Assembly: GCA_964016885.1 (NCBI GenBank)
Contig: OZ024741.1
Coordinates: 177,320,001 to 177,384,000 of the forward strand
Direction: 5' to 3'
Length of the DNA: 64,000 bases
Source: Eledone cirrhosa
Taxonomy: Eukaryota
Made by a program: the position numbers and the translations under genes. Below, in pieces: positions 17,403 to 61,605 of this stretch. The notes beneath the pieces were generated by a model that worked only from the letters and a program-made list of their open reading frames with translations, made no database searches and was not told the DNA's origin. Within the stretch, counting starts at the first letter, position 1, and every line of letters begins with the position of its first letter.

Positions 17403-17457
<55 letters not shown>

Positions 17458-26362: not shown

Positions 26363-26363
26363 C

Positions 26364-29300: not shown

Positions 29301-29617
29301 GGCACTTGCCCTGGTGGTCAGGGTGGCCGTGGTCATTTGTGCGGTTTTCGGCACGAGTAACCCTCAGGAGCATATTAAAGTCACATCTGAACAGTTGGAA
29401 TGCCATAAGTGCAGTAAATTCCCCCTATTTCGGAATTTTTCATTGATTCAATATTCATTTTTATTGTTAATATATATGTTTTTATGTCTTTTTTTTCTTT
29501 TTTTATATAAATAATATAAATCTTTACAGGCACAAAACCCACATCGTACCGTCCTGTACCGTCCTGTGCCGTCTCTAATGTTTTTCTTGATGTCAGCCCT
29601 TGTGGCCAATAAAGAAA
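26364..29617 (+). mobile_element. Tx1 family B 5'-truncated copy (mid-APE to 3' end), disrupted
   Basis: Starts at GDWN; contains RPITLLN, DQSKAFDRVNH, AYADD; ends AATAAAGAA(ATT)n. Confidence 0.92.
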
Positions 29618-29644: not shown

Positions 29645-32600
29645 TTGTTCTTTGAGTCTCAGTCATTGATATTATTTAACTGGAAAGTTTGTTGAAATGA
29701 ATATCTGCAGCCTCAGATATTCAGGACGTATCGGAGGGCTCTTGCTGTTCCCAGCAAGCATGCCTTTTGAAGTGTTACAAAAAGCGGGGCGGGGCCAATT
29801 TTCTTTAACCATCCCTGGAAACTTTTTGAAATAGTACCTAGTGCGCCTATGACAATTGGGACCACTTTGACTCCATGGCAGTTCCAAATCCTTTTTGCCT
29901 CCCACTTTAAGTCCTGGTATCGGTTAATTTTCACCCTCTCCGCCTCTTGCACTCTCGTGTTGAATGGGCAGGCCACATCCACAATCAGGTACGATCTTTT
30001 TTCCTTGTCCAAAACCACCAGGTCAGGTCTATTGTGTTCCAGTTTCTTGTCCGTCTGTATCCTAAAATCCCATAGCACCTTCACCTGATCGTTTTCTATC
30101 ACCGACTCTGGCTTATGCTCATACCACTTCTCAGAATCTCATAAATTGTTTACTTTGCATAGGTGCCAGTGGATCACCCTGCCCATCACATCATGTCTCC
30201 AGCCTTTATAGTGGGTCTGGGCTAGGTGTTTACACTCGGATACAATATGAGCCACAGTCTCCTCTCTCTCTCCCCAGATCCTGCAGGCTAGCCTCCTCCT
30301 TGTAAATATGGTGTTTCAGCCACTTCGTTTTGAGGGCCTGCTCTTGCGCACCCATTAGCATTCATTCTGTAGCCTTTTTAAGGTCTCCTCTTCTCAACCA
30401 GTTCCATGTCAGTGGATCTATGAATTCCGTTTTCTCAAAGAAGGTAGTATGAAGGCATTTTTCATGAAGGCTGCTCTTTCTCCTTGTTGTTATTTCCTTC
30501 TTGGACAAGCCCTGGTCTATTGTCCTCTCCTTCAGTACAATTCTGAGAATTGGCTCCTTACTATCAGTCACATATTTGTGTAGGTTGTTTTTCTCCATCT
30601 GATAAGACCTCTTCCACCTTGTTTTTCTCTATGCTGATAAGACCTCTTCCACCTTCAGATCTCCTTAAGTAGAGTATATCGACATCACTCCTCTTGTGGG
30701 ACATGTCGTACATAGTCAATAGCTTCCTAGTCTTCCTATCCATTTCTTTTTGCTCAGCAGCATTCCATCTCAGAATTCCCGCACTGTACCTAATAATAGA
30801 CACAGCTCGGGAATTTACTGCACTTATGCCATTCCAACTGTTCAGATGTGACTTTAATATGCTCCTTATTCTCCGAATGTATTCAGATCTTATCAATTCC
30901 TTCATGCTTTTGTTCTTGGTGTCTTTAGCCTCCAGAACACCCAAATTCTTGTATCCTTCTTCAGTGTCAATTTCCTTTATCATCTCACCTGTTGGTACCT
31001 GGATTCCGTTGCTCCTGTTCAATTTACCCCTCTTCATCACAAGGACTCCACACTTACTAATACCAAATTGCATACATATATCATTGCTGAAAATACGGAC
31101 AGTGTCAACAAGCACATCCAACTCCTTCTCACTCTTCCCGAAGAGCTTAAGATCCTCCATGAAGAAGAGGTGATTGATGGTAAGCTCTCCCTTTCCCAAC
31201 TTGTATCCTACTCTCACTTTTCGCAGTATAATGGTCAGGGGCATCAGGGCAAGGACAAACAACAGAGGGGACAGACTGTAAGATACCTCTCTTGATCTTC
31301 ACGCTTCCCTAAGGATTCTCCAGCTGATGTTAACTCTGATTTCCAGACTTCATACTTTTGCTCAACAAATGTCTGATGTTATCTGCTAACTTGAAGAACT
31401 CTAGGCTTTTTGTGATCCAAGAATGAGGCACCATGTCAAATGCCTTTTTGTAGTCTATCCATCCCATGGCAAGACCAGTGTGTCTCCTCTTGCAATTCCT
31501 CATTACCATCTTATCAATAAGTAACTGGTCCTTTGTACCACGGAACTTCTTTCAGCATCATTTCTGTTCGTCCGGTAACAAGTTGTTTGTGTGGAGGTGA
31601 TGGTAGATTTCCTCAGACACAATGCTTGTCAACAGTTTCCACATTACTGACAGACATGTGATATGCCTATAGTTGGTAACATCATTACCCTTGATTCGAT
31701 CTTTCATTACCAGAACTGTGGTACCCTTTGTCAACCACTCTGGTACCTCACCTGACATCAAGCAGTCATTGAACATGGTTGTCAGTTTCGGGTGGAGGGA
31801 TGTTATATGTTTAATCCAATACCGCTGCACACCATCTGGGCCTGGTGATTTCCAGTTGGTTAGTTTTTTGGCCTAGCCCGTAAGTGTTTCAACTGTCATA
31901 CTCGAATCAGTTTGTTGGTGTGCCTGTTCACTAATCTCCTTTTGTACTGTCTCAATCCACACTGCCTGGTCATTATGTTTAACATCCTGCTCCCATATTC
32001 CTCTCCAGAATGTTTTAGTTTGTTCCGCCTCAGGGATCAAATCGTTTCCTTTTTCTTTCCCTTCAAGCTGTCCAAACAATATCTTCTGGATGTTGTCAAA
32101 CATGCGGTTCTGCCTATACTGACTGACTCTTCTCTCGTATCGCCTAATATGTGCACTCTTTGCTACAATGCGTTGCTTCAGTTCCTCTATGATAATATTT
32201 AGCTTTTTCCTCCTAGTTTTGTACTTTATTTCCAGTCTATTTTTAGTGTCTATGTTTTTTAGTGTCCCATTCAGTAGGGACTCAAGCTTTCCAATATCAT
32301 TTCTCATGTCCCTGAGTGACCATTCAGTCGTTTCTTCCACCAAGGTTCTGATGTTTCTTGTTTGTTGTGTCCTCTCGCTTTTATGCCATGTATTTTCCTC
32401 GCCGCATTTGCTGTTGCTTTGGGGATATTTTTGCACTAGTGAAGGCTCCTCGCCTCAAGGTATGGGATGACTTTGTTTACCTTAGCTGTTGTTTCTTTTA
32501 ACTTTTGCCCTTCTACAAATCTTAGGTTCATAGGTTTCCCACTATCATTGTTCATGTCATGTACCACTAAGTTTAGGATATGAACCAAATCTTGTCCTAG

Positions 32601-33170
32601 CCCGTCCGCATTCATCTCCTCAATGGCCGTACCTTTGTTCCAGGTATTATTTATTTCAGCATTCACATCATTGTCTGCTTCGGATGCTTCCCCCTTTCTC
32701 TCAACCTCTTCACCTTCATCTCCCACTGGCTCGTTTGCCTGGCATACTCCACTCTCCATTTCCAAGCTAATCTCTCTGCTGAGTTCCTCCAGTTCCAGCT
32801 CGCTTATCCACCCATTAGTCTTATTACCCGATCTTGCCCGGCCAATTTTTGTTCATCTAATTTAAATAGACCAATCTCGTTCCAGATGCTTTGCATCCGT
32901 TTCCTATAGCCTTTTTCCTTGGGGTTACTCTTAAGGTAACATTGCATAACAGTTATATTCAATTCTTTCGTCCAGTTGGTTTTGGTCGCTTTCCTTCTTC
33001 TTCTTCCTCCAACACCAGCAGTATTTGGATGACAGCCAGATCCCTGCTGCTGGGCCAGGGAGCACCTGCTGGGTGAGTGTCTGTCACATGACATTCCAGT
33101 CTCCACTTCACCGTTATTCGAACTGTTTAGGTTCGACATTTAAACACTCATATCGAGGATGGGTGAATGT
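29645..33170 (-). mobile_element. R4/Dong-like RLE non-LTR element D2, near full length, disrupted
   Basis: ORF pieces from 33139 to 29713: NWTKELN..MQCY, RT motifs, RLE RPDLVVLD..IVDVACP..KINRYQDL..PIVIGALG. Same family as D1. Confidence 0.93.
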
Positions 33171-33524: not shown

Positions 33525-33890
33525 GTGGTGGTGGTGGTGATGTGATCGTAGTACTGTTGTGATGGTGTTGAAGTTGAAGTAGAAATAGAAGTTGAAATAA
33601 CAGTTGGCTTGGCTATATTTTATTGTGTGGTAGTGGTGATGTGATCATTGGCTTGGCTATATTTTTTTGGTGGTGGTGGTGATGTGATCGTAGTACTGTA
33701 GTGATGGTGTTGTAGTTGAAGTAGAAATAGAAGTTGAAGTAACAGTTGGCTTGGCTAGATTTTATTGTGTGGTAGTGGTGATGTGATCGTTGGCTTGGCT
33801 ATATTTTTTTGGTGGTGGTGGTGATGTGATCGTAGTACTGTAGTGATGGTGTTGAAGTTGAAGTAGAAATAGAAGTAGAACAGTTGGCTA
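33525..33890. repeat. Tandem repeat of ~140 bp units built on GGTGGTGATGTGATCGTAGTACTG / GTTGAAGTAGAAATAGAAG
   Basis: About 2.5 visibly repeated units. Confidence 0.8.
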
Positions 33891-33912
33891 TTATTATTAT
33901 TATTATTATTAT

Positions 33913-35483
33913 TTCCAATGTGCCAATGTGGACATGGACCAAGCGAATGGGGTCATCTAGATCGTATATAGACAGGATCTTAATTAGGAAATTATATAGA
34001 AATAGTGTGGGCTGCCCACTTTTTAAAATGGTCGCCTGTACAGATCACAAATGTGTGATCTGTACGATCGACCAAGATAAAACGCGTAGGTTAGGACGGG
34101 GTTACTGGAAGCTGAACATGTCATATCCGGCACGTATGGCTTACAGGGACCGAGTCAACAATTTAGTTAAGCAAAGGTTGACAGGGTGGATCATCAACAA
34201 GAGATGGTGGGGGGCTCTCAAAAGAGAGATTAGAGTAACTTCGATAGAGTTCAGCAAAGAACTGGCGTTAGAGAAAAATAGAAAGGAGGGGGAGCTGGTA
34301 GATAAAGTTAGACGAGGCTATTTGTAGTGGCATTGCAACTGACGTGCTAGCGGCGAGAATGGCATTAGACCATTTCTTCAATGCGAAATACGAAGGTTGC
34401 ATTGTCAGAGCTAAGGCGCGGGCGCTGAGAAACGAGGAAACCAAAGCTGTTCGATGTGCCCGCGCGGCGGAGGCGCAGCGTGGTAATAAAACCACAATTC
34501 GGTCTTTGGCGGACCGAGACGGACATGAAATAAGCGATTCAAAGCGGATGTGTGAGGCCTTTCGCCAGCACTTTGCTCGGGTGTTCGGGGAGAGTGGCGA
34601 ATCAGAGAGAGTAGCGGATTTCAGTCCCTATCTGACGGCTTGCCGCGCATCTTGACGGTCGACGCTGAGCGCTGCGAAAGGCCGATTACTTCAGCCGAAA
34701 TTCAGGATGCCCTTGTCGGCTGCGTAAGGCGCAAGTCACCCGGTTTGGATGGCCTGCCCTACGAGCTTTACGTAAATATGCCAGACTTGTTCTCCGAACT
34801 CCTCCAAGCACTTTACTGCAACTGGCAGCAGAATGGGAGTTTTCCCAGTTCTGTGAGCAGGGGAGTGGTGACGCTGATAAGGACATACGAGAACAAGAGG
34901 GATACATTAGACAACTTCAAGCCCATAACTCTGCTCAACACAGAGTTTAAGATTTTGGCCAAGGTGTTAGCAAAGAGATTGGCGCTTGTCGTCGAGGATT
35001 TGGTTGGGGAGGCGCAAACTTGCGCAATCCCAGCCAGGTTCAGTCACGACAATCTCCACTTCATGCGATACATCATAGAGATTGTAGGGTGTAAACCTGG
35101 CTTCGGTGGGGCACTGATCAATTTAGATCAATCGAAAGCATTCGATAGGGTCGACCATCGGTATCTGGAGTTTGTCCTCAAAGCAGCTGGCTTCGGCCCT
35201 ATCTTCAGAAGCTAACTTGAGGAGAGTGGTCCTCTCCCTGGGTGCCCTAGAAACGCAGGGGGGTTCAGGATTGGTGGGGTACCCGAGTCACCCCAGGGTC
35301 GTCCACCCCTTATCGGGGAATTTATTTTGTTATATTTATGCATAGTTTATTTTATTTATTTATATTTTCATTGTTAAAATAGTCTTGCCATTGTGCAATT
35401 TTACTCGACCTTATTGTAAACCCCCACTGTCCCTGTCTTTGTATTGTCCCCTACATGTCGGCCCTTGTAGTTAATAAATGAAA

Positions 35484-35485
<2 letters not shown>
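33913..35485 (+). mobile_element. Tx1 family C fragment, 5'-truncated and internally deleted, between (ATT)n tracts
   Basis: NVPMWTW, GYWKLN, KSPGLDGLPYE, DQSKAFDRVDH, then an abrupt jump to the 3' UTR at ~35212. Confidence 0.88.
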
Positions 35486-35523
<38 letters not shown>

Positions 35524-35524
<1 letters not shown>

Positions 35525-38500
35525 GGCGACCTACGTAGTAAATCGTATCATCGTGAGCTCCGCAAAGGTTTGTTATTTCCGTTTGTTAAAAATTGCCATT
35601 TATGGAAAATTGTTATTGTTAACCATATATAAGCGCACATACATTGTTTTCCGAAAAGGACAACCAAAAAGATTGGGGCCTTGTACCCAAAATTTTAACT
35701 TTTATTATTATCAAAAAATTTCTTTGAAAAAAAATGGCTTATTCACCTCTGCACGAAGCAGCTGAAAGCCTTTCTCACAAATTAACACCTCACACCGACA
35801 CCACCATTGTAAATGTTACTACATTTGCCAACACAAAAAAAAATATAAGCAGTAGCAATATTTTAAATTTGTCTCAGGCAGACATTCATTTCCCGCCATT
35901 ACCAATGACTGCAGGTGTTAAAGCCTCCACCACCACCACCACCGCTACAACCACCACCCCCACCACCACTGCGACAACAGAAACAAAAGAAGAAAAAAAT
36001 AAATTAACTCGTGATGTCGAAATGAAATCAAGCAAAATGGACTCTTCCCCACCAAAGACGACTGACGTCACCACCACCACAACTGAAACTAAAATTAATA
36101 TTAACACAAATAACGATAGCAACAACAACAACAATGACATTATAAACCCCCCCTCAGTTTCGCCAGAGTAGCAAAACAGTTCGAAGCATTTACGGTAACT
36201 CAGGAGGATTTAGAAAATGCCAAACAAATGGTAAAGAAAGATGGGTACAGGGTCAGCCTCACCCCCCCCCCCACACCTAATAAAATGGAGCATCGGCGCC
36301 TATGCACCGTGTCGTATAGAACAATAAATGTAAAATCGCGCCGAGTGGAACGGGTATCCGAGTCCCAAATCCAAAAAGCTTTGGGACATGTGTGGGCAAC
36401 AAAAAACCACATCAGACGTAGGCAAAAGTATGGAACCGTGGACGTGTTCTTTGAAACACCAGAGGAGGCTAGAGAACACTCCATGGCCCCATTAAGAAGT
36501 GACGACTTCACACCCGTCCCAAGCTATTGTGGCCAGAGACTCGTAAAGATCAGGGTGACCCACGTTCCACCGGCCATCGAAATTCCCTGGCTAATAGCAG
36601 CCGTCCTCGCCGGCATCGAAGCCAACACAAAAATAATAGCAATAGCAAAAGAAAAGCAGGAGAACTGGTCCGGATCTGGGATGGAGCTCCTGATCCAAGC
36701 GGACCAAAAAAGCATTGAGGAGATCCCAGGGGTAATAGACCTCACTGACGGCAGCCACCTCACGGTAATTGTCGAGGGCAGAAGACCTAGGTGTGTCGTT
36801 TGTTGTGAAGGAACCCACCTAAGGGCTTTCTGCCCTCAGGCTAAAAGGTTGAGGCCACCTCTCCTACCCACCCCAGTGACACAACCATCAACACCACCAG
36901 TAGCAGAGATGGCAGCAACAACTGTAGCAGCAACAACAGAAGCAACTATAACAGCAACAACCCCAGCAACAGTAGCAAAACCAACACCACCACCACCACC
37001 AGCAAAACCAACACCACCACCACCCAACGCTTCAGAACTAGCACCAGCGCCTACACCATCCACCACGCCACAACCAAAACTAACGCCTGTGGAGGATTTT
37101 CCACTCCCCGGCCTATCACAACTGGAGACAGATTGTGACGACGAGGAGTGGGAAACGATATCCGGAAGAAAAAAAAAGAAACCAAAAAAGAAAAAATGAT
37201 CTTCCTTCCCCCTCCGAAAACAAAATACAGAGGGAAACAAATAAACTAAGAAACAAAAAAGTTAGGACAGATATGCCACCATCCACACCAGCATCACCAA
37301 CCCCATCAACCCAAAAACCAACACCATCACCATCATTAACTCCAACACCACCATCACCTACACCACAAAAGTCACCAAAATGCGAAACAGAAACAAACCC
37401 ACCACAAACGCAAACAAAACAAAACAACCAAAACGATACACACTACACAGCATTAAATTTGAACAACAAGCAATTATTACACTACATCCAACACAACACC
37501 AGCATCACAGAAAAAGACTACACAACAACCCCAAAATTCACACCACCTCCACACATACAAATCACTCGCATCACACAGAAAACGTACATGACACTAAAAC
37601 AAAAATTCCTCAAAGACATCGGAGACTTCCGACAAGCACTCTCCAGGAGGATTTATAAGGACATCCTTCCTGAGGAGGCCGCAAGCAGTGAAAAGGATGG
37701 AAAAACCGTCCTTCCCCTACGAGAAGTAAGGTAAGTGGTCTTTCCCATCTTTTCCACTCCTTTTCAACATGACCTCACTCAGAATAGGCAGCATAAATGC
37801 GCGTGGCTTGGGGTCGTCATGGAAGCAGGGCCACCTGCTCAACGAATTCAGGTCACTAAACATAGATGTAGTGGCCATCAGCGAGACCAGAATCTCCGAA
37901 GCACAGGCTTTCGCACCGAACTTCGGCGGCTACGATGTGTACGCATCTCCCAGCCGTCCGGGATCGGGGGGGAGGAGTTGCTGTGCTTTTTCGGAGAGGT
38001 TTGGATCTCGCCATACGGGCCATCTTCCTGGACCCAGAAGGTAAGTTGGTGGTGCTGGACGTGACCAGCGGAGACGGGCAAGCTTTCAGTTTAGTGGCCG
38101 TCTATGCCCCGACAGGAGCAGGGCGGCCTGATTTCTTCCGGCGTCTGGAGACCTTTCTTGGAACGTCCCGCTCTTTAGTGTTAGTGGGCGACTGGAACGG
38201 GATCTTAGATGCACGCTGGGATTGTGTGGGATTAGTGGATAGGGAAGGAGGGTGCAAGAGTCTCACCAACCTGCTCAGACGTTTTGAACTGTCTGACAGG
38301 TACCGAATGTACCAATGTGGACTTGGACAAATCGCATAGGGTCATCCAGATCATATCTAGATAGAGTAATTTGTAGGGAAATAGATAGGTCTAGCATAGG
38401 CTGTCCACAATTCAAGATAGTCAGCTACACGGACCACAAATTCGTGATCTGTGTGCTTGACTTAGATAGGCTTCATAGACGAGGTCCCGGCTACTGGAAG

Positions 38501-39623
38501 CTAAACGCGTCCTTACCAGCGCGCAAGGCCTACAGAGACCGGATTAGCGAACTAGTTAAGCGGGCGTTGACGTGGTCATCGTCAACAACAAGTGGTGGTT
38601 TGCTCTGAAAAATGCAATTAGAATAGAGTCCATAAGGTTTAGTAAGACTTTAGCAATAGAGAAAAATAGAGCAGAGGGAGAATTAGTTAGAAAATTAGAT
38701 GAGGCGCTTAGCAAAGGCATCGCGACCGACGTACTTGCGGCGAAATTGGCCCTTGACCTTGGCGTTCTATATGGGATTATTGGAGGGGAAGAGCGACGAC
38801 GTATTTGGAGAAACTCTAGGCGTCGACGAAAATCAACTAGCCAATCTCTTCGGAAGGACTTTCGGACCGGGGCCTATGGACTTCCAGAAATCCCTGGCCT
38901 GGCAGTGCTACCGAGGAGCTTTGCCAGTTCGGGATACACTCTACAGGCATGGTGTTGCCGTCAGCCGGGCATGTCCGAGATGCGCGCAGGGCGACGAAAC
39001 CGTCCTGCACGCACTCGTCCAGTGTCCGTGGATTGCTGACTTGTGGGTTTATGTCGAACACTTGATGTCACGTGTAGGACGGATCCAGCTATCAGCTGAG
39101 TCCATCGTGAGGATTGCCCCACCCTCTTCTTTTAGCCGGGAATGGCAGGCAGTTTTTATCTTTCTTGTGGCCATGACGAAGTGATAATATGATGGACACG
39201 TTTGAAAGGGCTGAAGACGAGCACTTACCTCTTCGATGATGCCCTGATTAACTTTTTTAAATTTCAAATCAGAGTAGAGAAGGAAGTGCTCTCTTCCCAG
39301 CATTTTGTTGAAAGATGGGTGAGAGAAGCAATAATGGCCCGAGTGAATGGGCCTACTATGAGTATGTGTCTGTAAATTAAAGGTGGAAAACTGGGAGAGG
39401 GCACATGCCCTGGTGGTCAGGGTCACCGTGGTCTTTTAATGGGCTTTCTCCACAAATGTCTCTCGGAAGTCTCCCTGCCCCCTATTGGGGAATTCTTCAT
39501 TGTTATTTTTATAACAGCCTCTGTTTTTTTTACGCGCAGAAATGCCCATGTGTACCGTCCTGTATTGTCCTGTACTGTCCTTAATGTCTACTTTATGTAA
39601 ACCCTTGTGGTTAATAAAGAAAG

Positions 39624-39624
<1 letters not shown>
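35524..39624 (+). mobile_element. Tx1 family A copy A2, both ends intact, ~1.8 kb RT deletion, flanked by (ATT)n
   Basis: ORF1 35734-37734 (CVVCCEGTHLRAFC), ORF2 from 37769, deletion junction at 38756-38758. Confidence 0.93.
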
Positions 39625-39662
<38 letters not shown>

Positions 39663-39664
<2 letters not shown>

Positions 39665-39952
39665 TTTGAGTCTCAGTCATTGATGTTAGTTAACTGGAAA
39701 GTTTGTTGAGATGAATATCAAGCCACTACCTTCAGCCTCAGATATTCAGGATGTATCGGAGGGTTCTTGCTGTTCCCAGCAAGCATGCCTTTTGAAGCGT
39801 TCCAAAAAGCGTGAAGGGGCCAATTTTCTTTAACCATCCCTGGAAACTTTTTGAGATAGTCCCTAGTGCGTCTATGACAATCGAGATCACTTTGACTTCA
39901 TGGCAGTTCCAAATTCCTTTTACCTCCCACTTTAAGTCCTGTTATCGGTTGA
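39663..39952 (-). mobile_element. Short 5'-truncated R4/Dong-like 3' end in (ATT)n
   Basis: Close match to 29650-29925. Confidence 0.9.
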
Positions 39953-40196
39953 TTATTATTATTATTATTATTATTATTGAATGCTATGGTTGACGGAGGC
40001 TCGGCTCTGTAAGGTACTGTAAATTTTCGAACGCTATAACAATTGTAAATTGTTTAAAACTTAGACCAACTTGTAGACAAAAACACCCTCCTCCTTGTGA
40101 GAGGGGTCTTTCTGCCCGTTATTTTGGCCCTTCGGGGTTAAATAACTGCTTATTGGGGTTTTGTACCCAATATTTATTTTAAACAAAAAAAACAAC

Positions 40197-42301
40197 ATGG
40201 CTACGAAAAAGAATGTGCATAGGTCACTCCCACTCATTCCGTCTTCTTCTTCCTCAATCGTCACTACAGCAGAGAGTAGATTGTCTCTCTCCCTCCCTTC
40301 TTTAAATGTGTCTCTCTCCCTCCCTTCTCTTTCGCAAGTGACGAAAGAAAAGAAAAGTTCTCGTGCAAAGCGTGCAAGGTTTCTCTACGACGACGACGAC
40401 AGCGACGAAACAGGTGTGCGGGAAATACGAAAACCCAGTTCATTCGTCTGACGTCAGGAATAATAGCAGTAGCAGCCGTAATAACAACAGCAACAGTGAC
40501 AATGAAAACAACAGTAGCAGCCGCAACAGCATCACCAGCAGCATAAACAACAACAGCATTAGCAGCAGCAACACCAACAACAACCACAGCAACAGCGGCG
40601 GAGGCAGTAGTCGTAGTACCTGCAGCAACAACAAAAGTAACAGCAGCTCTGACGACAACAACAACAACAGCAGCAAAGAAAAACCAATCTCATTTGCAGG
40701 TATTGCGAAAAACTTGGAAACAATCCTCATAACAAATGAGGAATTAGAGGAAGCGAAGAAGATGTTGACAAAGAATGGACACCGAGCAATCTGCAAGGCA
40801 GCGGAAACATTTTTCGAAACCCAACAGCACTGTACGGTCACGTACCGTACAGTAAGTACAAAATCCCGTAGGGTGGAAAGAGCCACAGAGGCTCAAATAC
40901 AAAAAGCCTTGGGGTCTGTGTGGCAGCGGAAAACGCATATCACCCGATGCAAAAAATATGCCACCGTAGACGTACTTTTTGCCACACCCCAGGAGGCAAA
41001 GGCCCAATCCGTAGTGACCCTAAGGAGCGCGGAAATGGTGTCGGTGCCCTCCTACTGCGGGCAAAAAATTGTGAGGGTCAAACTGACCCCCCCCCCCCCC
41101 CCGGAATGGCCCCTTCTTGGCTGGCCGCGTCTGTCCTCGTCGGAATCGAGGACAAAACAACTGTACTGCAAGTACAGAAAAAAGTAAGAGAAGACTGGGT
41201 CGGCACCTCCATTGATATGCTAATCCAAACCAACCAGGAGTGCATCGAAGCTATCCCGCATGTGATAGACTTCGATAACGGCACTCAACTGCCCATAAGT
41301 GTTGAGGGAAAACGCCCGAAATGCTTTCGTTGTGGATCGAAGACTCACCTCATGGCCTTCTGCAACGAGAAGACCCTGAGAAAGGAGAAAACCCCCCTCC
41401 TTCCGAAACCGGCTCCACGGCCACCAGCAACAGGACAAGCGGCAACCAGGAACGATAGGTCCGTGGCACCCATACCCACGCAACGGAAATCAAAAACAGC
41501 AGCAGCAGTGGAAATATTAACAACAACAACAGCAATACCTATGCAGCTGCAACAGAGACTCCAGTGCAAACATCACCAACAACAACAAGTGAAAGAGTGG
41601 AGCTGGTACCCCTCCCCGACCTCACAGAATCGGACATGGAGTGTGAGGTGGGAGAGGGATGGCAAAAGGTCGTAAGAAGGCACAAACGCTGAAGCAGCGC
41701 ATCGTCGCCTTTGAAAAGGGAGGAAAGAAATGAGAAAAGGGTAAAGTCTACTGCAAAGAGACCCACAGCAGCAACACCACCAACACCATCACCACCCACA
41801 CTAGCACCACCATCATCACCGGCGACAACCCCACCGCCAACAATACCTTCAACACCACCACCACAAGCACCAACATCGCAAACACAACAACAAAACACAC
41901 ACACCGAGCAACAACGACAAGAAAATAGCAGAACCACACGCCACCCCCAGAAAAACAAATGCACGGCAATAAATACACACAACAAGCAACTAATGAATTA
42001 CATAATTGAACACACAGACATTTCACAACATGACTCCATAATACCAGCACCAATCAAAACGCCAACTAACATAAGACTGCTAAAAATAGCACAGAAACAA
42101 TACACAAACATTAAAACGAAATTCCCCAACGCAGTTGGTGAATTCAGGGACCTAGGAGGAACTATCAATCGAAGAGTTTATTCAGATATTCTCTTAGAAG
42201 AGCCGACGCCCAGCCGAAGGGACGATTCAACGGTCCCTTCACCAGACGATCAAGTGAAAAGGGATGTAAAAACCATCCCTCCTCTACCAAAAGTACGGTA
42301 A
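40197..42301 (+). pseudogene. Tx1 ORF1 variant (CCHC knuckle), disrupted
   Basis: RPKCFRCGSKTHLMAFC; TVTYRT..KSRRVER..E.QIQKALG and VPSYCGQ are shared with A1/A2. Confidence 0.85.
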
Positions 42302-42336
42302 GTGGTCTTTCCCATCTTTTCCACTCTATTTTAAAC

Positions 42337-45300
42337 ATGACCTCACTCAGAATAGGCAGCATAAATGCGCGTGGCTTGGGGTCGTCATGGAAGCAGGGTC
42401 ACCTGCTCAACGACCTCAGGTCACTAAACATAGATGTAGTGGCCATCAGCGAGACCAGAATCTCCGAAGCACGGGCCTTCGCACCGATCTTCGGCGGCTA
42501 CGATGTGTACGCATCTCCCAGCCGTCCTGGATCCGGTGGAGGAGTTGCTGTACTTTTTCGGAGAGGTTTGGATCTCGCCATACGGGCCATCTTCCTGGAC
42601 CCAGAGGGTAAGCTGGTGGTGCTGGACGTGACCAGCGGAGACGGGCAAGTTTTCAGGCTAGTGGCCGTCTACGCCCCGACAGGAGCAGGGCGGCCTGATT
42701 TCTTCCGGCGTCTGGAGACCTTTCTTGGAACGTCCCGCTCTTTAGTGTTAGTGGGCGACTGGAACGGGATGTTAGATGCACCCTGGGAATGTGTGGGATT
42801 AGCGGATAGGGGTGGAGGGTGCAAGAGCCTCACCAACCTGCTCAGGCGTTTTGAACTGTCTGACAGGTACCGATTGGATTTCCCGAATGTGCCAATGTGG
42901 ACTTGGACAAATCGCATAAGGTCATCCATATCATATCTAGATAGAGTATTTTGTAGGGAAATAGATAGGTCTAGCATAGGCATTCCACAATTCAAGATTG
43001 TCAGCTACACGGACCACAAATTCGTGATCTATGTGCTTGACTTAGATAGGCTTCATAGACGAGGACCCGGCTACTGGAAGCTAAACGCGTCCTTACCAGC
43101 GCGCAAGGCCTACAGAGACCGGATTAGCGAACTAGTTAAGCGGGCGTTGACGGGGGCCATCGTCAACAACAAGTGGTGGTTTGCTCTGAAAAGAGCGATT
43201 AGAATAGAATCCATTAGGTTTAGTAAGGCTTTAGCAATAGAGAAAAATAGAGCAGAGGGAGAACTAGTTAGAAAATTAGGCGAGGCGCTTAGCAACGGCA
43301 TTGCGACCGACGTGCTTGCGGCGAAATTGGCCCTTGACCAATTCTTCAATGCAAAGCACGAAGGCTGCGTTGTCCGAGCAAGGGTGCGTGCTTTCAGACA
43401 CGAGGGGACGAAAGCAGTTCAATGGGACCGGGTGGCGGAGGCAGTCGTGGCAACAAAGCCACGATCCGGTCTTTAGTGGACCACGACGGGCGCATGCTAC
43501 TCGATCCCGGGCAGATGTGTGAAGCTTTTCAGCGACACTTCGCTCAGCTGTTCGGTGGCAGCGGTGGGCCGGTTAGAGGGATGGACTTTAGTGTCTACCT
43601 CGACGGACTGCCGCGGCTCTCGGCCACTGAGGCGAAGTGTTGCGAAAAGCCGATAACAGCCGCTGAAGTAAGGGCGGCAATGACTGGCTGCACAAGGGGT
43701 AAATCGCCTGGTTTGGATGGTCTGCCCTATGAACTTTACGTACAGATGCCAGACTCGTTCGGAGGCCTCTTGGAGGACATCTACTGCAACTGGCAACAGA
43801 ACGGGAGAATTACCACTTCTGTGAGCCGAGGAGCGGTGGCACTGCTGAGAAAGGATCCGAGCAAGGGGGATAACATAATTTCCGGCCCATAACTCTGCTA
43901 AACATAGAGTTCAAGATTTTGGCTAGGGTGCTAGCAAAGAGGTTGGCGCTTGTCGTTGGTGGTCTGGTGGGAGAGGCGCAGACATGAGCCATTCCCGACA
44001 GATCCATCCACGACAACCTCCACCTCATGTGATACATCATAGAAAGGGTAGCTAAGGAACCTGGCACGTGTGGGTCCTTGATCAATTTAGATCAGTTGAA
44101 AGCTTTCGATAGGGTCGACCATCGTTACCTAGCGGCAGTCCTGAGGGCGGCTGGCTTTGGGCCCCTCTTCAGAGGCTGGATCGCTGCCATGCACAGCGAC
44201 ATCTGCTCTGTGGTGAGAGTGAACGGTCACCTGTCGGAACCGTTCAACATCATGCGCTCAGTCCGCCAAGGATGTCGCCTCTCGTCCCTATTGTACGTAT
44301 TGACTCTCGAGCCATTACTTCCCAAACTGGAGACGTTGAGGGGAGTCCAGAGCGAACTGGGATGCGGAAGATCCGTGTCAGCATATGCGGACGATGTCAT
44401 CGAGTGGTGTCGAACGCCAAACACATCGAGGCGATCGGCACTACACTAAGAGAATACGAAGCGGTGACAGGAGCAATGATCAACCAGGAAAAGTCAGTGG
44501 GCCTGCAGCTCGGCACCTGGAGCGGCAGGTCCATGCCGTCCAACAGCGTCGTCGGACGCTGGACGAACGGACCGGTTAAATTGCTAGGGGTCTGGTTCGG
44601 TCCGGACCTCCAGACCCACAAAAACTGGGACGAGGTGACGCGCAGGGTGGCTTCACTCACCCAGAAAAGGGCGGAGAGGAAGCTATCCCTGAAAGGTCGA
44701 GCGGAGGTGGCTAACGCGTACATCGCGTCTGTCATCTGCTACCGCCTGACCGTCGTACCTTGTCCCAAGCCTTGCCTGACTGCGCTGGAGCGTTTGTTCT
44801 TTCGCTTTCTGTGGTAGGGTCGCGCTCCGATGGTCAGGCGGTCCATCTGTTGTCAACACCCGCTACGTGGAGGGCTGGGCATGCCGTGGCTGATGATACG
44901 CAGGCACGCGCTCAGGCTACGACATCTCCATCTCTTCCTCGACGGTGATCAGGTGTGGTCGCCGTTTGCTAGACACGTATTTCCCCAGCTCGTTTCCTTG
45001 ACGGAGCTGGAGTCCTGGGTCAAGCGAAGACCGAGAGGGAGCGCCTGGAGACTGGAATGTCTTCAGGCGCTCACAGCCCTCGACCAATCCGGCAATGTGA
45101 TCGGTGGAAACTCCACCTCGGCGTTCTATAGAGGATTAGTGGAGGGAAAGAGCGACGACGTACTTGGGGAAACTCTAGGCGTAGACGAAAATCAACTAGC
45201 CAATCTCTTCGGAAGAACTTTCGGGCCAGGGCCTATGGACAACTTCCAGAAATCTCTGGCCTGGCAGTGCTACCGAGGAGCCTTGCCAGTTCGGGATAAA

Positions 45301-45750
45301 CTCTACAGGCATGGAGGTGCCGTCAGCCGGGCATGCTCGAGATGCGCGCAGGGCGACGAATCCGTCCTGCACGCACTCGTCCAGTGTCCGAAAATTGCTG
45401 ACTTGTGGGTTTATGTCGAACACCTGCTGTCGCGTTTAGGACGGATCCGGCTATCATCTGAGTCCATCGTGAGGATTGCCCCGCCCTCCTCTTTCAGCCG
45501 GGAAGGGCAGGCAGTTTTTATCTGCCTGGTGGCCGTGGCGAAAGAGATAGTATGGTGGACACGTTTGAAAGGGCTGAAGACGAGCACTTACCTCTTCGGT
45601 GATGCTCTGATTGACTTTTTCAAATTTCATTTGAAAAGGAAAATCAGAGTAGAGAGGGAAGTGCTCTCTTCCCAGCATTTTGTTGAAAGACGGGTGAGAG
45701 AAGCAAGAATGGCCCGAGTGAATGGGCCTACTCTGAGTATATATCTGTAA
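42337..45750 (+). pseudogene. Tx1 ORF2 (APE-RT-zinc finger) with frameshifts and stops
   Basis: Intact APE (GSINARGL, ISETR, LVGDWN, YLDRVF, TDHK), RT (KSPGLDG, KAFDRVDH, RQGC, AYADD), CSRC..ESVLHALVQC. Confidence 0.93.
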
Positions 45751-45997
45751 ATTGAATGTGGAAAGCTGGGAGAGGGCACTTGCCTTGGTGGTCAGGGTCA
45801 TTGTGGCTTCTTACTGGGCTTTCTCCACAAATGTCCCTCCGAAGTCTCCCCCCTATTGGGGATTTTTCATTGTTATTTTTTGTCACATCCTCTGTTTTTG
45901 TTTTTTACACGCAGAAATGCCCATTTGTACCGTCCTGCATTGTCCTGCACTGTCCTTAATGTCTACTTTATGTAAACCCTTGTGGTTAATAAAGAAA

Positions 45998-49305: not shown

Positions 49306-49313
49306 TATGTATG

Positions 49314-49419
<106 letters not shown>

Positions 49420-49421
49420 TA

Positions 49422-49512
<91 letters not shown>

Positions 49513-49639
49513 TCATATATCTATATATATATATATATACATACAATTGATATTAATAAATGGAAACTATATTTTTAAAACCATATATATTATATTATAT
49601 ATATTCCAAGGGTACCAAATATATATGTGTGTGCGTGTG

Positions 49640-49707
<68 letters not shown>

Positions 49708-49757
49708 AATATATATATATATGTGTGTGTATGTATATATATATATATATATATATA

Positions 49758-49953
49758 TAGGAACGATGAGGACCCCAACGGCTGAGCTCAAGCCGTTTCG
49801 ACGGCTAATTCTGGCGTCCAGAATTAGCCGTCGAAACGGCTTGAGCTCAGGCGTCGGGATCCTAATCGTTCCCATTACCCACTCTACTACCCTAAGCATT
49901 GAGTACTTTGGTGCGTTATGGTCCACCTGGTTCCTTACCACATTTCCTTCGTT
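49758..49953 (+). mobile_element. Miniature hairpin+tail element in (TA)n
   Basis: Near-perfect palindrome 49758-49874 followed by tail 49875-49953. Confidence 0.85.
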
Positions 49954-49954
49954 A

Positions 49955-49989
<35 letters not shown>

Positions 49990-50010
49990 GTGTATTTATA
50001 TATATATATA

Positions 50011-52539
50011 GTGATAATAATAAATGTGAAGACTAAAATCCGGAGAGGTCTCGATAAAGATGACTATATATCAGATATATAAGAACCGTAGACCAAATAT
50101 TTATTAAAATAACAGATTAAGTTTAAGCAAATAATCTTGTACTGTGAAACAATTATTTCGCGGTGATTGATTGGTTCAACGGCATATGCAACAAGGAACA
50201 TTGCCGTTTTATTCTATTCGACATCAATAATTACTACTCCTCCATCACTTTACCACTTCTTCTTAGAGCTATCAATTTCGCTAAAACACTCACAGTGGTT
50301 AAGGATTTCGAAGTTGATATCATCCTCAATGCCCGTAAGCAGTGATTAATTTCGACGACTCTATTTGGATAAAACAATCTAATAATACCCCTTTCGACGT
50401 GAGTATGGGCGCCAGGTTACAGATATTATCGGCCTTTTCCTTCTTTTCCCTATCAAGGAAGAATTACCCAACGAAACGTGGGCGGTGGTTTGTACCGTGA
50501 CGACGGTCTTTTGACCATGACAAAGTGCGAACCACGATCTTGCGACAGGTTCAGAAAAGAACTCACAGCCTTCTTTAAAGGCTTCAACCTCTCCATACAG
50601 GTTGAGGCCAACCTCTTGGTCGTAAATTACCTCGACGTTTCCCTCGATTTGTCGAATGGCTTGCACTACCCGTATAGAAAGTCGAATGACACGCTTAATT
50701 ACATAAGTAAGCATTCTAACCTTCCTGCCAGCATAACCAAGAACTTGGTAAGAAACGTTTCTTTGAGGCTTTCCCGTCTATCTACAAACGAGCATATTTT
50801 CAACGACCATTCCACATATTACAATGAAGATCTTGCTCAGAGTCGATTTGTCGATGAGGTAGCTTATACAGAGTACGAGAATAGACCTAGGAAAAATAGA
50901 TCCCGACGCATTATATAGTATAACCCACCATATAATATGGAGCTGGCCACACCATTAGCTAAGATCTTTCTCTCCCTTATTATGAAGCATTTCCCTCCAG
51001 CACATAAACATAGTAACATTTTTAATAGAAATACCATTAAAATTTCTTACTCTACGACTCCTCAACTTGCCCATCACAGCTTCAAATTTAGCTAAATTAC
51101 CTAGCCGTAGGAACACGTGCAGCTCTGTAGATACTACTAATTGTAAATGTAGGAATCGGGTTGACTGCCCTCTATCCGGGAAATGCCTCTCTAGTAACAT
51201 TGTCTACACATGTAAGGTTGAAACACCCACGTCCCGTAGGGCCTACATAGGGTAACCGCAAATAGATTCAAGCAGCGTCTTTACATGCATACCCATTCTT
51301 TTTTTTAACCCTTTAAGAAGGAATATGACGTCACTTTCAGCTTATATCTGGAGTCTAAAAGACAACCACACCCAATATAAGTTACACTGGGAGATCCTAG
51401 CTAAGGCTAGATCGTATAACGGAAATAAAAGACCATGTGACCTCTGCGCTGCTGAGACCCTGGAAATACTCTACGCCAAAGACCACACCTTAAACAAACA
51501 ATTTGAAGCAATTTCGACTTGTAAACATAAATTGCACAAAACTTTCCTGTATTATAGCCCCACATTATACCCTAACTGATAGTACGAACTATACGCGGAT
51601 ATTTTACGTCTTGATGTGGTAACTAAGTATATGTTATGTTAATACCTTTACTTATTCGTATAGGTAAGTATATATTACATGTATGTTTTGTAAAGGTAGT
51701 ATACTTTCTCGTACGTATAATTGCTTGTATATGTTATTGCCCTATATAATATATATACTGTTACATGTTCATATGGTTATGTGTATACATGAGTTTTGCG
51801 TCTGTGTGAGTATGCGGGTTCGGACGTATGTCGGGTGTGTGTATATGTGTATTTGTCTTCTGGTTGACGTAACTTTAGGCGAACATGTGTATTTACATGT
51901 AGGTGTGTGTGTACACGCATTATATACGTATTTATGTGCGTATATTTATATACGTTTATTTAATTTATGTATACACGCACACACACATGTATATGTATAT
52001 ATGTTTTATATATATTTTTATGTGTATTTGGTGTATACGTTGGTATGTGTGCAGGTACAGGCGTTGGGTGGGACCTGTATGGGCGTGCGTATTTTTTTTT
52101 GTACGTGCTTGTATTTCCATACCCATGGCGAGTGTTCTCGCGTATGCGTGTGTATGTACGTATGTGTATGTATATATTTAATTTCAATTACCTGTGTAAT
52201 TTATTTACTTTATTCTTAACTCCGAAGCCTAGAATCATTCGGCTTGCTAAATAGAATTTTAGTCTACGACTTCAGTTATAACATGAGTGTGGTTTTGTCT
52301 TCGCGTGTAATTGATTTCACCGCACCAAATAATAATGTATTATCTTCGTTTTTTTTCGTTCTTTGGCAGGGAACGTTACCACGAACCAAAGTATCGTATT
52401 CCTGTCTTCTTTCGGTTGAAACGTTTTTTGAAATATTCACTTCTGGTTCACAGATTGAATTTTTTAGTTTCAGAAGATCCCGTTAAGGGTGAAAGCAGCG
52501 ATTCGTTGCTTAAACTTTAATCTGTAATTTTAATAAATA
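50011..52539 (+). mobile_element. Penelope-like retroelement PLE2: inverted tail + short arm, then 5'-truncated tail-less long arm, in (TA)n
   Basis: 50098-50130 is the reverse complement of 52506-52539; RT and GIY-YIG lie inside. Confidence 0.9.
50150..51579 (+). pseudogene. PLE RT + GIY-YIG endonuclease, disrupted
   Basis: IDWFN, FDINNYYSSI, FDVSMG, GLYRDDGL, VNYLDVSLDL, YNPPY, KHFP, CKCRNRVDCPLSGKCL, IVYTC, AYIG, CDLCAAE. Confidence 0.92.
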
Positions 52540-52560
52540 AATAATTTATATATTTATATA

Positions 52561-52617
<57 letters not shown>

Positions 52618-52619
<2 letters not shown>

Positions 52620-52810
52620 CGAAGGAAATGTGGTAAGGAACCAGATGGACTATAACGCACTAAAGTACTCAATACTTAGGGTAGTAGAGTGGGTAATAGG
52701 AACGAGTAGGACCCCGACGGCTGAGCTCAAGCCGTTTCGACGGCTAATTCTGGACTAGATTTCCCGTCGAAACAGCTTGAGCTCAGCCGTCGGGGTCCTA
52801 CTCGTTCCTA
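52618..52810 (-). mobile_element. Miniature hairpin+tail element, same family as 49758-49953, opposite orientation
   Basis: Tail 52618-52696, hairpin 52697-52810. Confidence 0.85.
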
Positions 52811-52848
52811 TATATATATATATATATATTTTTATATATATATATATA

Positions 52849-53161
52849 TTACCAAGAAAACAAAACATCAGTGATGCATCTGGACTTGGTTTATTTCGTG
52901 TTACAAATGTTTCGCCGACATGTAGCTCGAGTCATAGTCCTTGTATGGATCTAACTGATTCTACTTCTGCGGGTTCTTTCAGATACGTCTGCTATGTCCG
53001 GAACATTTGCTCCGGACATAACATTTGTAACACGAAATAAACCAAGTCCAGATGCATCACTGATTTTTAGTTTTCTTGATAATTTATACACCCTACTCTG
53101 ATGAATATCGAATGCTAATTTCGGCATAACGCCCACAGAAGCACCTTAGCTACCACTATAC

Positions 53162-54302: not shown

Positions 54303-55886
<1,584 letters not shown>

Positions 55887-57644: not shown

Positions 57645-60600
57645 CAGTTGCATTTATCTTGCTTTATGTTCATACGAGTTATCACCAAATCACAACCAGT
57701 GACCTCAAGAGACAACAAGGTCCGCCATGTTCAAGAAAGAACATACATACTCACACATGCATCTTTAGTGTTTAGACTTGTGATGTACTTATATTGACAG
57801 AATCTTCCTTAGTATATGGGCAGTTCCCATTAGTACTATCTTTTGTATTTCTCCTATACGCGGGTTTCCTGGGATTTGCGATAAGTTATCACTAGACCCC
57901 TTAGGTATCATTCCCAGAGCGCCTACAACCACTGGTATTGTTTTATTTCTCAATTTCCACATTTTTCCAATTTCTATCTCCAGGTCCTTATATTTGCTCA
58001 ATTTTTCAAATGTTTTTATAGATACATTCTTGTCTATTGGAACAGACATATCAATTAGCAGGCATACCCTCTTTTTAAAGTCCTTCAATATTATATCAGG
58101 TCTATTTGCATCTATTTTTCGGTCTGTTTGGATGCTAAAGTTCCACTAGATTGAGATGTGATCTTTTTCAAGTATGGGAGGTGGTTGATGCTCCCACCAA
58201 TTCTTTTGATGGGGCAGGTCAAAATGCTTACACATTATCCAATGTATGTATTGTGCAGCTCTGTCATGCCTGTTTAGGTATTCGGTTGGAGCTATAGGAC
58301 TACACATTGAAATTATATGGTCAATGGTCTCTGGTTGTTTTTTGCATACACGGCATAATGGGCTACATCCATTTTTTATTATGTTGGATTGGTAATTTTT
58401 TGTTGGCAGACACTGATCCTGTGCTGATATAATCAGTCCTTCAGTCTCCGATTTCAGTCCAGTGGATGCCAACCACTGATGGGTTAGAGTTTTGTCAACA
58501 TCAGGATTGTTAGCTCGCTCTGGGTATTTTCCATATAGAGGCTTTTCTTGCCATTTCTTAGCCAGTTTCTGTAGCAGTTCTTTCTTTGCAGTTACTTTTA
58601 CCTGCTTTGCTTTTTCTGTGTTTTCCATTTCAGCAGTAAATGGGACTTCTGAAATTTGTAGTCCATTACTGTATCTTTGTGCATCTTTTGTAATGGAATA
58701 TGATCTTTTGATGCTTTCGTGTTTCAAAACGAGTTTGATCATCCAATCATGTGATTCCCTTAGATATGTACATAATCCAATTTTTGCAGTTTTCAACGCA
58801 ATGTCTAACTGGATTAACCCACGTCCCCCTTCTTTCCTAGGGAGATATTTTCTATATAAATCTGCCTTAGGGTGATGCATTCTGTGCATGGTTAAGAATT
58901 TTCGAATTTTTGTATCGAGCCTACGGATCTCTGTGCTTGACCAGTTGATGACATTGTAACTGTAGGTTACTACTGGTATGGCAAGCGTGTCTATGGCATC
59001 GATCCTATTCCTTGGATTCAATTCCGTTCTTAAGATTGCTCTTACTCTGCGGTAACATTCCTTCCTTATCCTTTCCCTCATTGTCGAGTGCTTGATTCCG
59101 TCTCCTTCACAGACACTACTATATTTGTAAGTATTTTCTTGATCAAGTTCTCTTATCACGTTGCCCCGATCAAGATTAATGTCTGAACTCTTCAGCAGCT
59201 TTCCTCTGGTGAACGTTGCTTTGGCGCATTTATCTAGTCCAAACTCCATTTTAATGTCATCACTGAACTGCTCCACAGTGGATAATAGCCCTTGCAATTG
59301 TTCATCATTGTTTGCAAATAGTTTCAGGTCATCCATGTAGAACAAGTGATTAATGGTTTTGTCATAGACTTTATATCCATGTTTTGTTTCATTGAGCATT
59401 TTACTTAATGGTATAAGTGCGATGCAGAATAAAAACGGTGATAAAGAGTCACCCTGAAAAATTCCACAATTAATATTAACTTCTCCAGCTTCCAGTGATT
59501 TTGTTTCACTATTCAAAAGGAGTGTCGTTTTCCATGTCTTCATACTGAATGACAAAAACCTCCTGACAACGGGGGATATTTTGAAAATCTCTAAACATTT
59601 TTCAATCCAACTGTGTCGCAAATATCGAATGCTTTTTTATAATCCATCCAAGCAATCGATAGATTTTTGTGTCTATATTGACAATCTTCCAGTATCATTT
59701 TGTTAACCAAAAGCTGATCCTTACAGCCATATGAGCCTCGTTTACACCCTTTCTGCTCAATGGGAAATAGGTCATTTGTTATCAGGTGGTCATATGTGTA
59801 TTCAGTTAGGACTGATGTTAAAATTTTATACATTGTGGTCAAGCAAGTTATCGGTCTGTAATTTTGGGGATTGTTTGTCTCATCATTCGTCGGAAGCAGG
59901 AATGTAATGCCGTTAACTAGCCATGATGGTATCTTTTCTGGCTCCTTAACTATTTCATTGTAAAGTTGGGCTAACAGCTCATGAGACTCTGTGAAGGCAT
60001 TTATCCAAAAGTTTTATATTTTGTCTTTTCCTGGGGATTTCCATTTGCTGGTTTTTCTTAGAGCCAAGCGCAACTGTTCAACTGTTATATTTCCCATATT
60101 TGTTCATCAAGGTGAGCTGTATCTTTCATTTGTCTGTCTATTCATGGGGCATGTATGTTATGAACTTTTTCTTCGGCCCAGATCTTTTCCCAGAATTCTT
60201 GCACTTCCTCCTTGGGTGGTATTGATTTAGCAGTTATTGTTGACTTACCAATTTTTCTATAGAAGTTTCTTTGGTTGTTTTTGAACATATTATTGTCCTT
60301 ATAGAATCTAGATTAGTTTTTCAAAGCGCCTTATACGAGCAGCTTTGGCCGACACTTTTTGCTTGATTATTTATATCAGCATGTCTATGTCACTTGTTGA
60401 CTTTCTACTGTTCTTTTTGTTCAATTTTCTAAGTTTAGTTTGTTTAACATGTTCACCTACTTTATAGTTTGTTAAAATTTCTATGTCAGATCGAAGAAGG
60501 TTTATTTGGCGATTGATGTTCTCTTGCCAAGTAGATTTCTTGTGGGAATTCCTTTGTTTTTTCATCTTCACTCCACATAAGTGAGTGGTGACTTTAGCGG

Positions 60601-61605
60601 ATGCATAATAGAGATGATTTAAATCAGTAATGTTTAGTTTGTTTGTGATGATAATGTTTTTGATAATTATGTTAGTCTTGTGTATTATCTTTTGGTTCTG
60701 TTTGGAGTTCTGGATCTTAGGGAGGGTGTCTCGTTGCCCCATGTCAGATTCTTTCATTTTCATCCATTCGATCATAATTTCATCCTTCAAGTTGGCAAGT
60801 TCATTCTCATTCATTTCTTTATCATTTACAATCTCATTATTTTCATTTGGAGTTTCATCTTGAGCATGCACTCCCTCCACTTTTTCGATCCTTTCTTTAA
60901 TTTGTTCTGTTGCCAGTGATTCCTACCCATCCCTAGGATTCGAAGTGTTACAACTTACCTCGTTTTCACTGACACATGTTTCATTTTCCCTTCGCTGACT
61001 TTGTGCTAATAGCTTGATCTGATCAATTTCTATATCAGTTAGTAACATTTTTCTTACAATATTTCTTCGTATATTGGCTAGTTTGTTACTGTCAATATAG
61101 CCTATGTTTTCGGGATGCTTCTTTTTCGAGTTGATATATATGTCTGTTCTCTATTCGATGTATTTGATAGGTAGTACCTGGCAGTGTAGAAAGCCTCAAG
61201 GACTTCTTTATTATCTTCCATTGACCATTTTTCTCTCTTTTTCTTTGGATTTCTTGGTGGTGAGCATGGAGGGCCAACAGTAAGAGTATTCCGGTTATGG
61301 GAGGTCTCCAGCTCCGAAGTGATGGGAAGGTTTGAACCATTAGCTTATTTTTCGACCCCAGTCTGGTTCCTCTCTGAGGGACGCGGCCCATTCTTACCCG
61401 GGTGACGGCCGATTCGGTATGAGATTTTATCATTAGACATTTACTTTATTTTGTCGCGTTTTATCCTTATCCGCCAAGGGGTAATCATTTCGTGTTACCA
61501 CTTCTAGAACGAGTGTCAACCAAGACTAGAGGGGTCGTTCTCCCCTAGAGACACGGCTATTCCCCGCCGGCCGCCATCCCGGTATTTCTTGGTCACGGGG
61601 TTTTC
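57645..61605 (-). mobile_element. R4/Dong-like RLE non-LTR element D3 (distinct family), near full length
   Basis: ORF pieces from ~61440 to 57789: YRPITCL, GCKDQLL, GIFQGDSLSP, FYMDDLKLF, GGRGL, CRVC..ETIDHIISMC, RPDI..LIDMSVP..KLSKYKDL..PVVVGALG. Confidence 0.94.

Follow-up and report, generated by a model that had tools for sequence, protein, structure and literature searches.

Paired end sites and predicted twin hairpin motifs in a Hydra-clade Penelope-like element family of Eledone cirrhosa

The stretch analysed here, called the window, comprises 64,000 nucleotides of an Eledone cirrhosa assembly (GCA_964016885.1, contig OZ024741.1, positions 177,320,001 to 177,384,000). At its positions 50,011 to 52,539 lies a dead, 5'-truncated, two-armed copy of a Hydra-clade Penelope-like element (PLE) set in (TA)n (Table 1). 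The family of this copy is denoted F2, and three further families are denoted F1, F3, and F4; copies end at one of two sites, S or L, and the tail is the segment between them. A reading made from the sequence alone had described the order (TA)n, antisense tail, antisense arm, coding arm, 3'UTR, and (TA)n, and this order is present. The inverted arm, there given as 33 bp, is real, and comparison with other copies sets its length at 39 bp; within the window it aligns to its counterpart with 90% identity over 40 columns (E 5e-8). The insertion had also been called complete, which is true of its two ends and not of its coding region, which starts at codon 223 of 709. Aligned with an intact natural copy, the insertion shows 91.6% identity; its coding arm has six indels and several stops. 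The insertion itself is ordinary, one among tens of thousands. An internal direct repeat of about 120-130 nt, with a spacing of about 146 nt, occurs in the F2 3'UTR (window 52250-52388; loci L005 and L016).

Table 1. Features of the F2 insertion and of its surroundings (window coordinates)
Feature	Position	Strand	Basis or remark
Blocks with decayed copies of other non-LTR retrotransposons	17300-22200, 25900-29400, 33800-45800; 23000-25000, 29700-33100, 57800-61000		
Hairpin-plus-tail insertion of the second Hydra family, F1, S left / L right	49760..49952	+	
(TA)n target, left flank	49953..50010	.	Sequence
87-nt tail, the 5'UTR segment between S and L; outer end 50011 is the L end	50011..50097	-	
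Predicted hairpin inside the tail, just 3' of site S	50046..50094	-	Substitutions on both sides of the basal stem in this copy
Short arm, 39 bp, inverted copy of 52500-52539	50098..50136	-	Comparison with other copies
Head-to-head junction, 2-nt overlap between short arm and ORF	50135..50136	.	
5'-truncated, broken Hydra-type ORF from codon 223 of 709: RT (YRDD), CxCx5C linker, C-terminal GIY-YIG-type EN	50135..51582	+	
Long-arm 3'UTR / pLTR region, up to site S	51583..52539	+	
Type I hammerhead-like motif, core U4 replaced by A; putative cut after 52511	52466..52516	+	Fitted by eye to the PMC8557442 File S2 format
(TA)n right flank, first degenerate, then perfect	52540..52618	.	
Second F1 hairpin-plus-tail insertion, L left / S right, 80-nt tail	52619..52808	-	

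A single (TA)n tract (window 49306-52849) holds three consecutive Hydra insertions, of families F1, F2, and F1, all of the S+L type. The two F1 hairpin insertions that flank F2 are about 89% alike and mutually inverted. A third Hydra family, F3, whose hammerhead core is canonical and whose tail measures 113 nt, has two copies in the window, at 480-3900 (minus) and 54424-55750 (plus), one S-ended and one L-ended; (TA)n expansions interrupt both. The window also holds decayed copies, in both orientations, of other non-LTR retrotransposons, which we take from their motifs to be Tx1/L1-like and RTE/HERO-like.

Judged by its motifs and by a by-eye alignment, family F2 is a Hydra-clade EN+ PLE. Marks of this clade include an RWK-type motif, replacement of DKG by DKT, a CxCx5C linker, the lack of an internal CCHH, and a preference for (TA)n (PMC8557442). 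A natural intact F2 copy encodes a single 709-aa ORF, RT followed by a C-terminal GIY-YIG EN, with LRWR at 36, DKT at 115, and the CxCx5C linker at 564; LRWR and DKT are also present in F1, F3, and F4. One Cys ends the first EN motif of F2, yet there is no Cys pair before YIG and no CCHH in the GIY-YIG core. F2 ends abut (TA)n, the insertion preference of the clade. By eye, the protein resembles the Hydra rows of Fig. S7 of PMC8557442, whose reference sequences were compared as supplement text. RVT_1 is found in 18-92% of the members of its Atlas neighbors and GIY-YIG in 29-50%, and Pfam and PDB sequence scans of the F2 protein gave no relevant match. Assignment to Naiad was rejected, as the EN is C-terminal in F2 whereas that of Naiad is N-terminal. 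A reconstructed consensus protein had been suggested for in vitro work; the natural intact 709-aa ORF makes such a reconstruction superfluous.

F2 is abundant. One 38-mer has 16,271 exact matches, and patterns for the S and L regions have 34,573 and 15,539, with 0 for the reversed controls. Many among 150 scored copies have open frames of at least 700 aa, which points to a young and perhaps still active family. All three stems of the F2 hammerhead-like motif fit by eye, and the core U4 is A in the 16,271 exact matches, from which it follows that the family spread with a non-canonical hammerhead core. Such a spread would agree with the report that cleavage is dispensable in vitro. The hammerhead cores of F3 and F4 are canonical. 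No Rfam hammerhead match was obtained in 49700-52900, where the only matches were sub-threshold, microRNA-like ones to repeats, and the MFE fold does not contain the hammerhead-like structure. Several short S-ended copies (L032, L039, L050, L055, L057, L066, L071, and L146) all start near reference position 92, and several of these then carry a diverged inverted piece of tail; they possibly form a non-autonomous subfamily.

The tail belongs to the 5'UTR of the following unit. In L061 and L062, which are nearly full-length, one finds in turn pLTR, tail, 44 nt, ATG, ORF, 3'UTR, and short end, and in further read-through loci the tail likewise runs on into the ATG. L061 has its hammerhead-like core at 144, followed by S (206-212), L (298-301), and the ATG (343). 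S and L are 87-89 nt apart in F2, close to the spacing expected of the two end peaks, and in read-through copies L precedes the ATG by 44 (F2), 93 (F1), and 54 nt (F3). Tail lengths are 89 (F2), 80 (F1), 113 (F3), and 91 nt (F4), so that the remark that the tail exceeds 30-40 nt holds for four families at 80-113 nt. The 30-40 bp given for EN+ PLEs is a descriptive trait rather than a clade definition, and the rest of the EN+ PLE insertion structure, a partial tandem (pLTR), an inverted 5'-truncated copy, and a one-sided tail with which the next unit begins, is found in L061, L062, L169, and L176. A 3'-terminal extension as the origin of the tail was rejected, since the tail runs into the 5'UTR of the next unit in full-length copies. 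Its contiguity with the 3'UTR in other copies, on which the sequence-only reading depended, is borne out by 40 of 40 scored candidates, all of which cover a 125-nt query of tail plus arm.

Because the tail continues into the 5'UTR in full-length copies, it is not the RNA 3' end, and because L lies inside the 5'UTR, 44 nt before the ATG, S and L are both most likely internal RT start sites, as published for a Poseidon element (PMC11167929). The earlier proposal equated L with the physical 3' terminus of the RNA, from which one target strand was primed, and took S for an internal site. The sharpness of L speaks for this, as 97 of the first 100 matches listed pass straight into (TA)n, and transcripts of L-ended genomic copies could end nearby. 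Against it, L stands before the ATG in read-through copies of F1, F2, and F3, poly(A) is lacking at L ends, the hammerhead-like cut site lies about 114 nt upstream, the motif 3' of L (described below) is as conserved as that 3' of S, and internal initiation has been demonstrated in vitro for PAc (PMC11167929). First priming at a poly(A) 3' end, as in L1, finds no counterpart here. The earlier proposal is very improbable.

End positions were counted in 40 best-scoring copies, obtained with a query upstream of both sites and including the window copy. Of these, 29 end at S, 8 at L, and 3 elsewhere; the two sharp peaks that had been foreseen are present, and the 3' ends are not scattered. A position-ordered sample comprised 80 of the 83 regions around the first 100 matches of the 38-mer, with 96 anchors. 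It contains 49 head-to-head pairs: 42 L+S, 1 S+S, 1 L+L, and 5 with one end at neither site. The peaks are thus paired in inverted orientation, as had also been foreseen. The excess of L+S (42 of 44 against an expectation of 0.5) has a binomial p of 6e-11, where L162 and L163, which share a junction and one flank, are probably duplicates and leave 41 of the 42 independent. When earlier, partly tail-selected loci are added, 75 of 84 pairs are L+S. The other families behave alike: the partner is of the S type in 27 of 30 tail-selected F1 loci and of the L type in none, and pairs set by strand and distance are L+S in 9 of 9 cases in F3 and in 7 of 8 in F4, with one other. The two same-type exceptions, L201 (S+S, with a long arm that stops just 3' of L) and L216 (L+L), could stem from multi-unit templates. 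Two-arm products are not obligate, as 34 anchored arms of the position-ordered sample have no BLAST partner (20 S, 12 L, 2 other) and a tiny partner, always of the opposite type, was found in only 3 of them.

A bulged CUC/GAG hairpin is predicted 6-9 nt 3' of both S and L. The motif reads TAT, then 6-9 nt on CTC, one extra pair, a variable stem-loop, a 2-nt bulge, and GAG, and in F2 the same six letters stand downstream of S and of L. In four natural units of 1.8-3.6 kb from F1-F3 it occurs exactly twice per unit, at S and at L. By a rule fitted on these same three families, two motif matches arise in dinucleotide shuffles of the 300 nt before the ATG at P ≤0.001. The F1-F3 proteins are 36-50% identical over the first 130 aa and the UTRs are otherwise unalignable, the best UTR alignments between families falling mostly on or beside the motifs. 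The flanking pair is G-C at some sites and A-T at others, and in F3 its bases do not pair. The hairpin 3' of L is conserved though absent from every L-ended arm.

A prediction for F4 (L178) was fixed before the search; only the S end was blind, one L end being known from a flank. This partly blind prediction held. In a position-ordered set of 30 copies, the end lies 6-10 nt ahead of hairpin 1 in 16, with TA overlap taken into account, and 8-12 nt ahead of hairpin 2 in 11; the others are 2 read-through copies and 1 with its end at another position. The first F4 hairpin fails the TAT part of the motif rule. By eye, the consensi in File S7 of PMC8557442 show two hairpins in Hydra-1_Ajap, one each in Hydra-2_Ajap and Hydra-2_Amil, altered hairpin forms in Hydra-1_Crog, and no clear motif in Hydra-1_Obim; with Hydra-1_Amil counted among the six published Hydra consensi there, the motif is present in three (coral, sea cucumber).

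Predicted folding is weak: the hairpin energies range from -0.4 to -7.6 kcal/mol, and for the S hairpin of F3 the MFE fold is a different one. The S hairpin of the window copy has a folding z-score of -0.13, so that energy alone is not significant. Covariation was sought in the F2 S hairpin, where variants on the two stem sides do not co-occur. The spacer varies from 6 to 36 nt, which may suit a single-stranded structure more than a duplex site. Choice of the start by TA pairing alone was rejected, as better TA runs in the tail are unused; the longest TA-like tail runs serve as ends in 0 of 43 cases.

The reach and overlap of the arms bear on how the two ends come to be joined. The tail-less arm extends >20 nt further 5' in 26 of the 42 L+S pairs, the tailed arm extends further in 4, and 12 are near-symmetric; the 26:4 ratio is inflated, as very short S arms escape detection. 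The window copy agrees in kind. The description of the long coding arm as tail-less thus stands as a tendency and not as a rule, for besides these 4 pairs there are five loci with a tail on a coding-length arm (L005, L015, L020, L024, and L027). The tailed arm stops short of passing S in 18 of 42 pairs, 13 of these starting at reference 201-229, and overlaps its partner in the other 24, which calls for strand displacement or a second RNA. No tailed arm of the position-ordered sample starts at 148-200; starts inside this gap belong to the window copy (173) and to four other selected copies.

One alternative is fold-back or self-priming: a single cDNA would fold back and copy itself, EN would cut the product at S, where the motif would serve as a signal in single-stranded DNA, and the arms would become unequal through subsequent deletions. 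Self-priming and EN-mediated resolution have already been proposed (PMC3846280, PMC8557442), and fold-back would account for the S+L rule and for variants shared between arms. Moreover, 12 of the 42 pairs are symmetric within 20 nt, and several of these are centered on a small palindrome, with a pile-up at reference 136-147. However, a tail-less arm that is longer than its partner, as in 26 of 42 pairs, was not copied from the tailed cDNA, and the 18 tailed arms have no sequence in common with their partners, 13 of them beginning at S, which random deletion would not lead one to expect. The same motif also stands 3' of L. Tail-less arms that are longer or non-overlapping exclude simple fold-back from the tailed cDNA and fit priming of both target strands, and fold-back as a whole is unlikely.

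A second alternative is dual priming on two RNAs, each subunit of an asymmetric complex bringing its own, one used at S and the other at L. The same stretch is copied twice in 24 of 42 pairs, and the arms disagree in a T-run in 4 of 6 informative pairs, the window copy included, in which a short run on the tailed arm faces a long run on its partner. The two same-type pairs, L201 and L216, are also compatible with separate RNAs. Yet nothing on a separate RNA would halt an L-started cDNA at S, where 13 of 42 halt, and independent RNAs predict about half same-type pairs, against the 2 of 44 found. Over 51 pairs, the arms share non-majority bases at 147 of 356 variant positions (41%), compared with 9% after shuffling, and 0 of 1000 shuffles reach as high a value. 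Long overlaps share nearly all their variants (21 shared and 3 private in L185, 17 and 2 in L188), although the similarity of the arms may alternatively come from shared age or conversion. Two RNAs are, on this evidence, an improbable source of the pairs.

Junctions mostly differ from locus to locus. An overlap of at least 3 nt is present in 22 of 48 ungapped joints, where 5% is expected (one natural reference), and 27 of 75 joints have inserted bases rather than overlap. L157, L207, and L218 have junctions near S with 11-nt inserts, some like nearby element sequence, which suggests templated repair patches. Copying of whole hairpins as non-autonomous units was rejected, as the junctions are mostly different; L166 and L171 have a common junction with a 3-nt overlap. 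Derivation of every tailed arm from the 5' pLTR, and of every tail-less arm from the RNA 3' end, is not general either, as kb-long tailed arms exist.

The explanation that we favor, and hold to be probable though well short of certain, is twin priming on one read-through RNA, with each hairpin placing one RT start and the cDNA 3' ends joined thereafter. The evidence on mechanism consists throughout of finished genomic products, from which we infer protein binding to the hairpins, action as a dimer, strand displacement, and joining. The template would be a read-through (partial-tandem) RNA that reaches beyond L. Two protein subunits would bind the two hairpins, each setting a target 3' end on the RNA, where it would be held by only 1-5 nt of TA pairing. 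Both nicked strands of the (TA)n target would then each start a cDNA, one at S and one at L. The cDNA begun at L would in many cases halt on reaching S, the starting point of its counterpart, or else displace that counterpart. Microhomology or end-joining would finally unite the 3' ends of the two cDNAs, and fill-in would follow. For the window copy, this would mean a cDNA of about 126 nt from L and one of about 2.4 kb from S.

A wider version is put forward tentatively, as something that may well prove too broad: programmed twin priming could be the normal route of Hydra-clade PLEs, with a dimer on two tandem bulged hairpins that would be conserved across cnidarian, echinoderm, and host families, each subunit priming one strand about 8 nt before its hairpin and the hairpin spacing setting the tail length. 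If so, RNA structure next to the template would fix the start point of Hydra-clade PLEs, in a way loosely comparable to telomerase. With the pairing counted and a short candidate RNA signal at each start site, the question of how PLEs insert comes within reach of a small mutagenesis experiment that uses an intact protein from nature; a start signal that proved portable would also be of value to RT-based insertion tools.

Parts of this picture are already known, namely the layout of an inverted arm plus tail (PMC3846280, PMC8557442) and the use of two internal starts (PMC11167929). Craig et al. 2021 (PMC8557442) draw an inverted 5'-truncated copy with a tail at one end as typical of PLEs, and the origin of the inverted pLTRs and the one-sided tail is called unresolved there and in PMC11167929. 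What appears to be new, in that it was not found in the published accounts covered here, is the near-strict S+L pairing with twin-priming-like junctions and the CUC/GAG hairpin 3' of both sites. Neither the pairing rule nor the twin hairpins were found in the Hydra-clade account of PMC8557442, and the literature titles and abstract openings covered gave no report of twin priming in PLEs or of these hairpins.

Compared with the published Hydra clade, the elements described here have the same RW[RK], DKT, and CxCx5C linker, the same C-terminal GIY-YIG-type EN without an internal CC, the same (TA)n target, and a hammerhead-like motif near the 3' end (PMC8557442). They differ in that the F2 unit is 3.27 kb, where units are generally under 3 kb, that the tails are 80-113 nt rather than the stated 30-40, and that U4 of the F2 hammerhead-like core is changed to A. 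In bdelloid Penelope elements, head-to-head inverted pLTRs likewise occur with an optional tail on one arm that corresponds to the start of the unit; there, however, the tail is 31 bp and is explained by self-priming on an antisense template (PMC3846280, Arkhipova et al. 2013).

A biochemical counterpart is the Poseidon element PAc, in which two internal RT start sites, located downstream of the hammerhead, delimit the tail (PMC11167929, Frangieh et al. 2024). In support of twin priming, the Poseidon protein in vitro nicks and extends both strands, uses two internal starts, requires RNA 3' of the starts, and is predicted to be a dimer; against it, the two strands do not differ in their start site for PAc. 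PAc shares with the present families the tail between two start sites and an AT-rich target. Its sites lie in the ORF, in an AC-rich stem-loop, whereas those described here lie in the 5'UTR, 80-113 nt apart, each before its own copy of the predicted hairpin, and starts here have 1-5 nt of TA pairing, unlike PAc. Inverted insertions and S+L pairing are not modeled in the PAc account (PMC11167929).

With twin or dual priming of L1 (PMC2837659), the route favored here has in common that both target strands would prime and that inverted, head-to-head segments result, often with microhomology. Inverted segments in which the first cDNA ends near the second start make up 18 of 42 pairs here, and the tail-only arms have the geometry of L1 twin priming, with 13 of the 18 starting at 201-229 and S at 206-212. 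In L1, one start is at the poly(A) tail, the other is at a variable internal site, and the arms do not overlap (PMC2837659). In the families described here, by contrast, the two starts are fixed and most likely internal, overlap between the arms is frequent, and two-arm insertions are very common.
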